Of a DNA stretch of 64,000 nt, positions 1 to 1,046 are shown one piece after another. The notes beneath the pieces were generated by a model. That model ran no database searches and had not been told where the DNA came from. It worked only from the letters and a program-made list of their open reading frames with translations. Numbering within the stretch: position 1 is the first letter of the stretch; each line of letters starts with the position of its first letter. Made by a program: the position numbers and the translations under genes. Location of the stretch: NCBI GenBank assembly GCA_035395685.1, contig DAOPBR010000007.1, positions 918 to 64,917 on the forward strand, given 5' to 3'. This DNA is from Spirochaetota bacterium (GTDB taxonomy: Bacteria; Spirochaetota; UBA4802; JAFGJZ01).

Positions 1-567
1 TTTCATTTTATCATCTTTTCTGTAACCGTTTTCAAAAAACCGTTTCACGTCTTTCGCATAAACCGGACCGAAAACGACATTGAATCCGCTTTTCTCTTTC
101 ACAATATGTGATTCAATACCGGGAGCTCCGAGCTGCGGAAGTATAAGCCTTTTGTGAGAAACAATGCTTTCGAGTCCCGATGACTTAATTCTCGAGATCA
201 GTTCATCGGTTCCGAATGTTCCTTTCCCTGCAGCACACCAGACATTGACCCCATCCGTATCGAGAACGAGAATCCAGAGATTCATTCCCTTCAGTTCTTT
301 TCTCAGTTTATCAAACGTCAGTTTGTAATTTGCAGTGACTAAAACATCAGCCTTATCATCAGGATTTCCCAGCGAATAAATCCCGGGATTTACCCGGTAA
401 TCATTTCTATTGATTCCCCAGCGGACTTTCCATCCTCCGATTATGTCAGAAAAATTCAAGTCAGCAGACACCACCGGAATCATTCTGCCTGCGAAAAACC
501 GGTTACGGATAATCCATTTCTCTTTATTTGTCTTTTTCACTTTTGAGCCGTTTAAATCATTTTTCAT
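1..567 (-). CDS. hgcA: HgcA-like corrinoid protein (mercury methylation), N-terminal 189 aa; 3' end runs off the window
   Basis: My own translation of the minus strand from the ATG at 567 (preceded by GGAGGTG): MKNDLNGSKV...WKVRWGINRNDYRVNPGIYSLGNPDDKADVLVTANYKLTFDKLRKELKGMNLWILVLDTDGVNVWCAAGKGTFGTDEL...RLILPQLGAPG. It contains the HgcA cap-helix signature N(V/I)WCA(A/G)GK and is otherwise CFeSP-like. It is not in the supplied ORF track because it is truncated at the window edge. Confidence 0.65.
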   Translation of the reverse strand, partial: MKNDLNGSKVKKTNKEKWIIRNRFFAGRMIPVVSADLNFSDIIGGWKVRWGINRNDYRVNPGIYSLGNPDDKADVLVTANYKLTFDKLRKELKGMNLWILVLDTDGVNVWCAAGKGTFGTDELISRIKSSGLESIVSHKRLILPQLGAPGIESHIVKEKSGFNVVFGPVYAKDVKRFFENGYRKDDKMK

Positions 568-1046
568 TTTCACCTCCGCCGCAGCAAGTACATCCCTTCT
601 TCCGCAGAGCATTCATCGTCTTTCCGATTGTTTCAACAACGGAAACAATCACAGAATGTTCTTTCTGCGGAATTAGACCAAAAACTGATTCATAATAAGA
701 ATCGCATTTTTCATTAATACTATCAGCAAGCTTCTTCCCCTGTTCAGTCAGAGAAAGCTTCATAAATCTGCGGTCTTCAGGATCAATTTCTCTGTTGACC
801 AAACCTATATTCAGCATTCCGTCGACCGTGCGGCTCAAAGTGCTCTTATCAAGTTCGAGTATTTCACTCAGATCTTTGATTGTACTTTCACCCATCTCAC
901 GGATCTCCATCAAAACATGGCATTGTGAAAGCGACACACCGCAGCATTCGGACTCGAGTTCTCTGGCGATTTCGCGTTCAAGTACGCGCAGTGATTTTCT
1001 GAAATTCTGAATCGTTTCACGGTTTATGCCCATTTGTTGCTCCATG
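557..1046 (-). CDS. MarR-family transcriptional regulator with Cys-rich C-terminal tail (…KKGCTCCGGGENEK)
   Basis: Winged-helix MarR pattern (LSQCHVLMEIREMGESTIKDLSEILELDKSTLSRTVDGMLNIGLVNRE). The probable start is MEQQM at 1046, not the ORF-track start at 1081. The stop at 557-559 overlaps the hgcA start codon at 565-567. Confidence 0.8.

Follow-up and report, generated by a model that had tools for sequence, protein, structure and literature searches.

A cysteine-rich MarR-family regulator gene overlapping hgcA in a Spirochaetota genome: predicted operator, candidate sensor site and a possible response to thiophilic metal(loid)s

How the expression of the mercury methylation genes hgcA and hgcB is controlled, and what the native role of HgcAB is, are central questions of mercury biogeochemistry. 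The transcript levels of hgcAB are poor predictors of methylmercury production, and, to our knowledge, only one hgcAB regulator has been tested so far, ArsR2 of strain ND132. The present study concerns a 64,000-nucleotide (nt) stretch of DNA from a Spirochaetota bacterium (GenBank assembly GCA_035395685.1, contig DAOPBR010000007.1, positions 918 to 64,917; hereafter the window; G+C content 38.9%). The host is an uncultured anaerobe from wastewater or a digester. At its left end, a gene encoding a cysteine-rich regulator of the MarR family (marR) overlaps the beginning of a truncated gene that an initial annotation had assigned to hgcA. The locus thus raises the question of which genes this regulator controls, where it binds and to which signal it responds. 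The comparisons described here lead us to propose that MarR is probably an autoregulated repressor of marR-hgcA-hgcB, which would be released from the DNA by a thiophilic metal(loid).

The window contains the 5' part of hgcA (1–567, minus strand; codons 1–189 of 351). The open reading frame (ORF) begins with the ATG at 567–565, encodes the N-terminus MKNDLNGSK and stays open over 189 codons up to position 1, where it leaves the window. The corrinoid-binding domain encoded here matched the NCBIfam model HgcA_corrinoid with 262.3 bits (E 5.7e-78, profile positions 1–160 of 325), compared to 183.4 bits for the HgcAB_like fusion model, 82 bits for the NCBIfam gamma subunit of acetyl-CoA decarbonylase/synthase (the corrinoid iron–sulfur protein, CFeSP) and 50.8 bits for Pfam CdhD. 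The cap-helix motif NVWCAAGKGTFG (211–246, minus strand; residues 108–119, N108-V-W-C111-A-A-G-K-G-T-F-G) was read directly from the sequence, and Cys111 (codon TGT, 237–235) is the predicted cobalt ligand. The remainder of the operon was found on the JGI contig Ga0116160_1000096 (105 kb; L001), which was retrieved by an exact-protein look-up with MarR and extends the window leftwards. Its positions 1–11045 correspond to positions 11045–1 of the window with 100% identity over 11,045 nt and without gaps. The full hgcA of 351 codons scored 405.1 bits with the HgcA model NF040863 (cut-off 275), 210.8 bits with HgcAB_like (under the cut-off of 285) and 79.9 bits with the CFeSP gamma subunit. Five hydrophobic segments (Kyte–Doolittle at least 1.6 over 19 residues) lie within residues 201–347 of this protein, outside the window. 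An ORF of 104 codons beginning 10 nt past hgcA was identified as hgcB (116.7 bits with NF040864, cut-off 99). The HgcB protein, likewise encoded outside the window, contains two CX2CX2CX3C motifs (C19/22/25/29 and C49/52/55/59), a mid-protein cysteine (C72) and a C-terminus reading SSCC with the cysteine pair C103-C104. It is followed by a convergent gene for a homocysteine synthase (metY, L001 11906–13204; 725.8 bits).

The initial annotation had read the ORF at 567 as HgcA, had proposed to compare HgcA and CFeSP models on the fragment, and had expected a transmembrane half and hgcB just beyond position 1, with an acsCD context as the contrary outcome. The HgcA model gave the clearly better score, the transmembrane half and hgcB were both present in the identical contig, and the gene downstream of hgcA is hgcB rather than acsCD. 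A CFeSP identity was rejected in view of 82 bits against 262 and 405 bits for HgcA, the transmembrane half and the adjoining hgcB. An HgcAB-fusion paralogue was rejected as well, since hgcA and hgcB are two distinct genes and the fusion model, at 211 bits, did not reach its cut-off of 285. The gene identities within the marR-hgcA-hgcB module are regarded as practically certain, and the Hg(II)-methylation gene pair hgcAB is, by its sequence, genuine.

The regulator gene marR (557–1033, minus strand) encodes a protein of 158 amino acids (aa) with the C-terminus KKGCTCCGGGENEK and the stop codon TGA at 559–557. It belongs to the MarR family according to Pfam (MarR, PF01047, 54.6 bits, cut-off 24.6; MarR_2, PF12802, 50.8 bits, cut-off 27), and the structural comparisons described below agree with this. 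The ArsR-type model HTH_5 (PF01022) remained under its cut-off (20.6 versus 22 bits), as did HTH_metalloreg of NCBIfam (17.2 versus 55 bits). An ArsR-type identity was rejected because of the HTH_5 score, in agreement with the initial annotation as a MarR-type protein. The start codon had to be reassigned. The JGI gene call begins with the ATG at 1045 (162 aa), the first ATG of the ORF, which the initial annotation had placed at 1046. However, the two nearest homologues begin at the equivalent of the ATG at 1033 (158 aa), a GGAG Shine–Dalgarno sequence is located at 1040–1043 (minus strand), 6 nt before this second ATG, and the ATG at 1045 is replaced by ATA in L082, a related locus with 83% identity, in which the second ATG is kept and the Shine–Dalgarno sequence reads AGGA. 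For these reasons, the real start of marR is probably the ATG at 1033 and the public call is four codons too long. Residue numbers refer to the 158-aa protein unless the 162-aa form is stated.

The overlap of marR and hgcA measures 11 nt (557–567, minus strand) and extends from the hgcA ATG at 567–565 to the marR TGA at 559–557. The GGAGG Shine–Dalgarno sequence of hgcA (573–577, minus strand) lies 5 nt before the hgcA ATG and inside the coding sequence of marR. Both features had been recognized in the initial annotation; the codons concerned are GGC-GGA-GGT. The overlap and the common orientation make it very likely that the two genes are co-transcribed and translationally coupled.

This arrangement recurs in many other organisms. 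A protein search returned 299 MarR homologues with 40–99% identity, several of them named as Spirochaetia; the nearest marR/hgcA relatives belong to metagenome-assembled genomes (MAGs) of Spirochaetales and Spirochaetota (64% and 54–55% identity). When a single genome of each GTDB species was scanned with an alignment of 38 MarR members as query, 324 loci were obtained, and the gene neighbourhoods were counted for the best 80 of them (L002–L081). These 80 loci are distributed over Spirochaetota, Syntrophus/Syntrophorhabdus/Desulfobacterales, Acidobacteriota, Aminicenantes, KSB1, Calditrichia, Wallbacteria, Moduliflexus, Opitutales, Bacteroidota and Bacillota. Directly downstream of marR and on the same strand, hgcA and then hgcB were detected in 64 of the 80 (tblastn with the HgcA and HgcB of the window locus). 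In 30 of these 64 cases, the closest hgcA start codon in frame is situated 1–14 nt inside the end of marR, with 4, 11 and 8 nt as the commonest overlaps, and in 22 more it lies no more than 20 nt past that end. Judged by this spacing, tight coupling of marR and hgcA is the norm of the family. The window locus is a typical member of a recurrent marR-hgcA-hgcB arrangement present in at least 64 other species-level genomes from many phyla.

The region upstream of marR contains a predicted promoter of the sigma-70 type (1064–1091, minus strand), which consists of the −35 box TTGACA (1091–1086), a 16-nt spacer and the −10 box TATATT (1069–1064). Among the sigma-70-like sites of the first 4.4 kb, it ranks highest, with 11 of 12 matches. 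The predicted start of transcription is near 1057. When the regions upstream of marR were lined up across the family, a palindrome TTGTAT-N-ATACAA became apparent, which often shows a 16-nt repeat period and is embedded in a longer stretch where TTGTA and TACAA half-sites alternate. Within the 130 nt preceding marR at 79 loci, this palindrome occurred 85 times in 10,059 nt (at most two mismatches) compared to 35 times in the other 658,831 nt, a 159-fold enrichment. It was present at 54 of 65 hgcA-linked loci (64 relatives plus the window locus) and at 13 of 14 other loci. At 35 of 53 loci, the palindrome begins 15–16 nt past TTGAC, and its right half (A)TACAAT therefore falls at the position expected for the −10 box. 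In the window, the predicted MarR operator (1061–1089, minus strand) is an array of the half-sites ACAA/TTGTA/TACAT/TTGTA with an 8-nt period, reads (G)ACAA-TAG-TTGTA-TAA-TACAT-ATA-TTGTA (1089–1061) and overlaps both the −35 and the −10 box. Its core palindrome TTGTAT-A-ATACAT at 1081–1069 is the only match with a single mismatch in the 64-kb window. No further operator copies above chance were found in the window, where eight matches with at most two mismatches faced 4.4 expected ones and the other seven all carried two mismatches. The array and the sequence from the −35 box onward are conserved in L082. An operator shared across the family is expected because the recognition helix of MarR (LDKSTLSRTVD) is nearly invariant. 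Transcription of the three genes as an operon and autoregulation at the conserved operator are predicted with good confidence. No riboswitch or other known RNA was detected near the operon, the only Rfam match in the window being a tRNA at 16869–16941. At four loci (L049, L057, L060 and L069), the ATG of marR is located only about 7–10 nt past the predicted −10 box and operator, a hint that some members of the family have leaderless or near-leaderless marR mRNAs.

A different binding site, palindromes at 1128–1158, had been proposed for MarR in the initial annotation. This element turned out to be a perfect hairpin of 33 nt (1128–1160, minus strand) with a 13-bp stem, fully complementary arms and a 7-nt loop. 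It is located 37 nt upstream of the −35 box and 53 nt past the stop codon of a gene for a 110-aa NifX/NifB-C-like protein (nifX-like, 1213–1545), which forms an upstream operon with patB (C–S lyase, 1551–2774) and a metB-like gene for a pyridoxal phosphate-dependent enzyme of Cys/Met metabolism (2801–3967), and is the probable terminator of this operon. An identical copy of 32 nt in the same orientation is found 9 nt past the stop codon of hgcB (L001 11867–11898, outside the window). The two copies bracket marR-hgcA-hgcB at a distance of 1,980 nt from each other, and others were detected neither in the 64-kb window nor at the 80 related loci. A metagenome scan revealed three contigs with the hairpin; two relatives with 96% identity, one of them from an activated-sludge metagenome, possess both copies, again 1,980 nt apart. 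In L082, only the copy after hgcB is present; marR and cysK are oriented divergently there, without the metB-like/patB/nifX-like block. The RNA of the two copies folds with −20.5 and −19.3 kcal/mol (z −7.2 and −7.8), and the stems are followed by AUUUUG or UGUAUUUUUAU. The hairpin is probably a duplicated intrinsic terminator and was possibly involved in a rearrangement that brought in the metB-like block. A function as the main MarR operator was rejected because of the copy after hgcB, the absence of the hairpin upstream of marR in L082 and the terminator-like fold with its U run; the conserved candidate operator is the array at 1061–1089. The assumption that the hairpin pair forms the borders of a mobile marR-hgcAB cassette was also dropped, since L082 points to the metB-like/patB/nifX-like block together with one hairpin as the variable piece.

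The possible signal was approached via the cysteine residues of MarR, which are located at positions 30, 31, 38, 110, 148, 150 and 151. The putative sensor motif C30-C31-x6-C38-H39 (codons at 917–946, minus strand) covers the alpha1–alpha2 loop and the start of helix 2, Cys110 (704–706, minus strand) is part of helix 5, and C148, C150 and C151 belong to the CTCC motif of the C-terminal tail (581–592, minus strand). An alignment of the best 120 homologues (162-aa numbering) showed Cys34 and Cys42 in 100%, Cys35 in 94%, Cys114 in 93% and the C-terminal Cys pair in 80–85% of the sequences. All 65 hgcA-linked MarR proteins have retained C30, C31 and C38, and 57 of them carry at least two cysteines within the last 25 residues. 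An exhaustive hidden Markov model search of 1.84 billion representative sequences returned 308 clusters at E ≤ 1e-30, compared to 65,866 generic MarR matches at E ≤ 1e-3; the motif CCx6C[HY] was present in 106 of 148 new top representatives.

An AlphaFold2 model based on the family alignment displayed the canonical order of MarR elements (H5–23, H35–47, H52–59, H63–75, E79–84, E87–95, H97–119, H123–145) with a predicted local distance difference test score (pLDDT) of 88.5, and it places C38 and H39 in helix 2 and C110 in helix 5. All top Foldseek matches in the PDB were MarR-family proteins with 18–24% identity, including the zinc sensors ZitR and AdcR, whereas a PDB search by sequence found generic MarR proteins as the nearest entries (58 bits). 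In AdcR, zinc is bound by E24/H42/H108/H112 (site 1) and C30/E41/E107 (site 2; PMC6372160; PMC11211675). A comparison of the family profile with AdcR using hhalign (95.5% probability; reference sequence 100% identical to 3tgn_A) aligned C38 with E41, H39 with H42 and C110 with H112, and I106 and S105 with H108 and E107. The His/Glu zinc ligand set of AdcR is thus replaced, with only H42 kept (as H39), E41 exchanged for C38 and H112 for C110, and the AdcR family model NF038251 gave 31.4 bits versus a cut-off of 175. The conserved Cys and His residues would thus occupy the allosteric inter-domain metal pocket of AdcR and ZitR with thiolates as ligands. A metal- or thiol-sensing role, which the initial annotation had linked to the CTCCGGG tail, remains plausible and is better grounded by the conservation of the cysteines and by the AdcR alignment; the determinants are, however, not confined to the tail and include the invariant CCx6CH near the start of helix 2.

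Further indications of the signal come from the 16 loci among the best 80 for which the marR-hgcA-hgcB arrangement was not counted. Two of them stop at a contig edge (L039 and L079), and in L057 hgcA is mostly masked by a run of N, followed by hgcB. Three Bacillota loci have a gene for the arsenite methyltransferase ArsM downstream of marR (L073, 303 bits, and L076, 383 bits, cut-off 263; L077 by tblastn similarity), and two loci from Desulfobacteraceae (L045 and L081) have a gene for ArsN2 (157 bits, cut-off 125). A DVU_1556-like class-I methyltransferase, scoring under the cut-off and often accompanied by a C_GCAxxG_C_C protein, is encoded at L036, L066 and L074. A C_GCAxxG_C_C protein was assigned by motif and tblastn similarity at L061, and a rhodanese together with a YedE/YeeE-like membrane protein, again under the cut-off, at L056 and L072. 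The two remaining loci, L062 and L075, are followed by other, unscored genes, in the case of L075 for a transporter-looking membrane protein. The relatives linked to arsM, arsN2 or rhodanese/YedE genes share 38–47% identity with the window protein and have the same operator motif. A neighbour-joining tree placed the proteins linked to arsM, which keep CCx6C and the tail CC, within the hgcA-linked ones, whereas those linked to arsN2, methyltransferase or rhodanese genes form a separate clade lacking the tail CC.

The C_GCAxxG_C_C protein (TIGR01909, four conserved cysteines) is also a recurrent partner in the regulon of this MarR family as a whole. Its gene directly follows hgcB at L049 (7006–7437), L054 (5635–6066), L060 (2181–2603) and L069 (6807–7238) and occurs at L061, L066, L073, L074 and L079, thus also beside arsM or the DVU_1556-like methyltransferase gene. 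It is not present at the window locus.

In the model proposed above, the apo form of the MarR dimer would sit on the array at 1061–1089, cover the −35 and −10 boxes and thereby repress its own gene and hgcAB, the translation of hgcA being coupled to that of marR via the 11-nt overlap and the GGAGG sequence within the marR codons. C30, C31 and C38 would capture a thiophilic metal(loid), and H39, C110 and the flexible CC tail could serve as further or transfer ligands. The metal-bound dimer would leave the DNA and allow expression of marR-hgcA-hgcB, which would correspond to an ArsR-like regulatory logic on a MarR scaffold. Whether the effector is indeed a soft metal(loid) is a question on which we stand close to even, leaning slightly to the negative. 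Should it be one, As(III) or methyl-As(III) is most likely. Arsenite is the leading candidate because sister regulators precede arsM and arsN2, because the S3 sites of known As(III) sensors often include a vicinal Cys pair (AfArsR C95/C96/C102, CgArsR C15/C16/C55'; PMC11868830) and because hgcAB of ND132 is under the control of an arsenic-responsive ArsR-type repressor. Hg(II) is possible and fits the ligand set equally well.

Several points weigh against this model. Every regulatory step in it is drawn from sequence and comparison. The homologous site of AdcR favours DNA binding in the metal-loaded state, and the sign of the response could hence be opposite to the one proposed. C110 is found in only 45 of the 65 hgcA-linked proteins and is missing in about a third. 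In the AlphaFold2 model, the alpha1–alpha2 loop with C30 and C31 reaches a pLDDT of only about 70, and the C-terminal Cys tail is disordered. The offset between the −35 box and the palindrome is 10 nt in the window, and also in L082, instead of the 15–16 nt typical of the family. The 80% linkage to hgcA is biased upward for the family as a whole, since the query was itself hgcA-linked and the 80 loci are those that matched it best. Finally, the two relatives beside rhodanese/YedE sulfur genes would fit a sensor of sulfane sulfur equally well.

The last point leads to the explanation that MarR is a thiol redox sensor or a sensor of sulfane sulfur (persulfide or polysulfide), in which modification or cross-linking of the cysteines releases the protein from the DNA with no metal(loid) bound. 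Oxidation or persulfidation of cysteines regulates many MarR proteins, among them OhrR, MexR, MgrA and MarR of E. coli (PMC11211675). The habitats of the hosts are sulfidic and anoxic, the recurrent C_GCAxxG_C_C partners may be redox proteins, and the MarR genes of L056 and L072 precede those for a rhodanese and YedE/YeeE-like sulfur/selenium transport. On the other hand, the links to arsM and arsN2 are arsenic-specific, and two adjacent cysteines are a typical feature of As(III) and Hg(II) sites. The conserved Cys and His residues align with metal ligands of AdcR, among them the near-invariant His39, for which no role in disulfide chemistry is obvious, and strict anaerobes meet little reactive oxygen species. 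We consider such a sensor unlikely. The same alignment is open to another interpretation, which appears rather improbable to us: the cysteines could hold Zn(II), as in AdcR and ZitR, or an iron–sulfur cluster, this structural or co-repressor cofactor would be required for DNA binding, and the signal would then be the loss of the cofactor upon metal starvation or exposure to O2, NO or a redox change. C38, H39 and C110 do align with the zinc ligands E41, H42 and H112 of AdcR, the four to six conserved cysteines are reminiscent of iron–sulfur regulators, and all hosts are anaerobes rich in iron–sulfur proteins, HgcB itself being a 2x[4Fe-4S] protein. However, the sampled regulons contain no genes for zinc homeostasis or iron–sulfur cluster assembly, the AdcR family model is far under its cut-off (31 versus 175 bits), and no iron–sulfur-binding MarR protein was found in the literature examined.

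The usual MarR pocket could instead accommodate an organic effector such as S-adenosylhomocysteine (SAH) or homocysteine, derived from one-carbon metabolism or from that of the sulfur amino acids, with the cysteines being incidental. This explanation is suggested by the surroundings of the operon in the window, which include the metB-like gene, patB, cysK (4270–5196) and the homocysteine synthase gene; moreover, HgcA requires a methyl donor, and ArsR2 of ND132 responded to both arsenic and SAH. Yet none of the 80 loci has a metY, metB-like, patB or nifX-like gene and only one has cysK, L082 lacks the metB-like/patB/nifX-like block in spite of 83% identity, and three cysteines invariant across phyla would be unexpected if they were incidental. 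An organic metabolite as effector is therefore very improbable. The neighbouring genes for sulfur amino-acid metabolism and thiolation, to which mnmA (5196–6263) and a gene for an Rrf2 regulator similar to CymR/IscR (6319–6756) may be added, are treated as incidental to marR-hgcAB because they do not recur at the other 80 loci.

With the metal(loid)-released repressor as the preferred explanation, a wider generalization can be formulated, which is put forward tentatively and with more doubt than conviction: the MarR subfamily with CCx6CH and tail CC (about 308 clusters at 50% identity in more than 10 phyla) may be an uncharacterized class of soft-metal(loid) sensors for As(III), methyl-As(III) or Hg(II), which reuses the AdcR/ZitR pocket with thiolates and switches on hgcAB and arsM. 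If true, it would include the first MarR-family sensor of arsenic or mercury and connect hgcAB to arsenic by a second regulatory route, independent of the first, with a bearing on the native function of HgcAB.

Two regions further inside the window were recorded in addition. The cluster at 8048–12998 encodes [FeFe]-hydrogenase maturases in the order hydG-hydE-(aspartate ammonia-lyase-like)-hydF; the lyase-family gene between hydE and hydF scored 306.7 bits, under the aspA cut-off of 510, and a small TM1266-like ORF is located just before hydG according to the JGI call. The annotation of the ORF at 15184–16404 is ambiguous because the models for cofactor-independent phosphoglycerate mutase (485 bits, cut-off 426) and "proposed homoserine kinase" (468.5 bits, cut-off 446.3) are both above the cut-off.

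Among known proteins, the corrinoid-binding domain of HgcA is homologous to that of AcsC/CdhE, the large subunit of CFeSP in the Wood–Ljungdahl pathway (Pfam CdhD, 50.8 bits). HgcA differs from it by the cap-helix Cys, the transmembrane C-terminal half and the neighbouring gene, which is hgcB and not acsD or acsE. The regulator shares its fold with AdcR and ZitR (PDB 3tgn, 5yhx, 6fi9), and AdcR, too, has a cysteine in the alpha1–alpha2 loop (C30). The identity is only 20–22%, however, the ligands are thiolates here and His/Glu there, the C-terminal CC is an additional feature, and the regulon comprises hgcAB or arsM instead of zinc uptake. Metal promotes DNA binding of AdcR, whereas a metal-driven release is proposed for the MarR described here. 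The arsenite-responsive ArsR repressors (R773 ArsR, AfArsR, CgArsR; PMC11868830) are comparable in being homodimeric and autoregulated and in controlling metalloid genes including arsM. The arrangement C95-C96-x5-C102 of AfArsR resembles C30-C31-x6-C38, although the proteins are of different families and carry the site at different places in the fold.

Regulators next to hgcAB had been considered ArsR-like in the initial annotation, but the MarR type has been noted before. A single sentence in Zhang et al. (2023; PMC10349881) mentions genes of the MarR family located upstream of hgcA in two experimentally confirmed methylators; family name and position are those of the marR of the window. McDaniel et al. 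(2020; PMC7438021) reported for 112 genomes that hgcAB is directly preceded by an unnamed "putative transcriptional regulator" and built a hidden Markov model from the regulators preceding hgcAB in five permafrost MAGs; a family name, motif or operator was not given. That regulator occupies the same position and has a similar cross-phylum spread (Acidobacteria, Verrucomicrobia/Opitutae, Deltaproteobacteria and permafrost "fen" MAGs). Three of the loci analysed here (L023, L039 and L050) originate from the same Stordalen Mire MAG set and one (L037) from Opitutales. Judged by position, taxa and the overlap in MAG sets, the regulator of McDaniel et al. probably is the Cys-rich MarR family. A search of the available literature found no report of the Cys motif, the operator, the arsM- and arsN2-linked relatives or an arsenic- or mercury-sensing MarR protein. 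The class of regulator was already noted in 2020 and 2023, and the family-level predictions of operator, sensor site and arsenic links are new as far as we have seen.

A close counterpart is the arsR2-hgcA-hgcB region of Pseudodesulfovibrio mercurii ND132 (Gionfriddo et al., 2022 preprint/2023; Goni-Urriza et al., 2020), in which a small Cys-bearing winged-helix repressor is likewise encoded directly upstream. ArsR2 (PF01022) is co-transcribed with hgcAB, controls these genes and responds to arsenic (preprint 10.1101/2022.10.17.512643). Its cysteines are C26, C47, C49, C86 and C88 (same preprint), a pattern different from C30/C31/C38/C110 and the tail CC of the MarR protein (PF01047) described here. 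One gene number lies between arsR2 (DND132_1054) and hgcA (DND132_1056), whereas the two genes overlap in the window. In comparison with ArsR2, the MarR proteins represent a second type of hgcAB regulator, which is much more widespread and has been seen but hardly analysed. The operator, the sensor motif and the arsenic-linked relatives described here make the switching of hgcAB by arsenic, mercury or sulfur testable and the prediction of the regulon in metagenomes possible.

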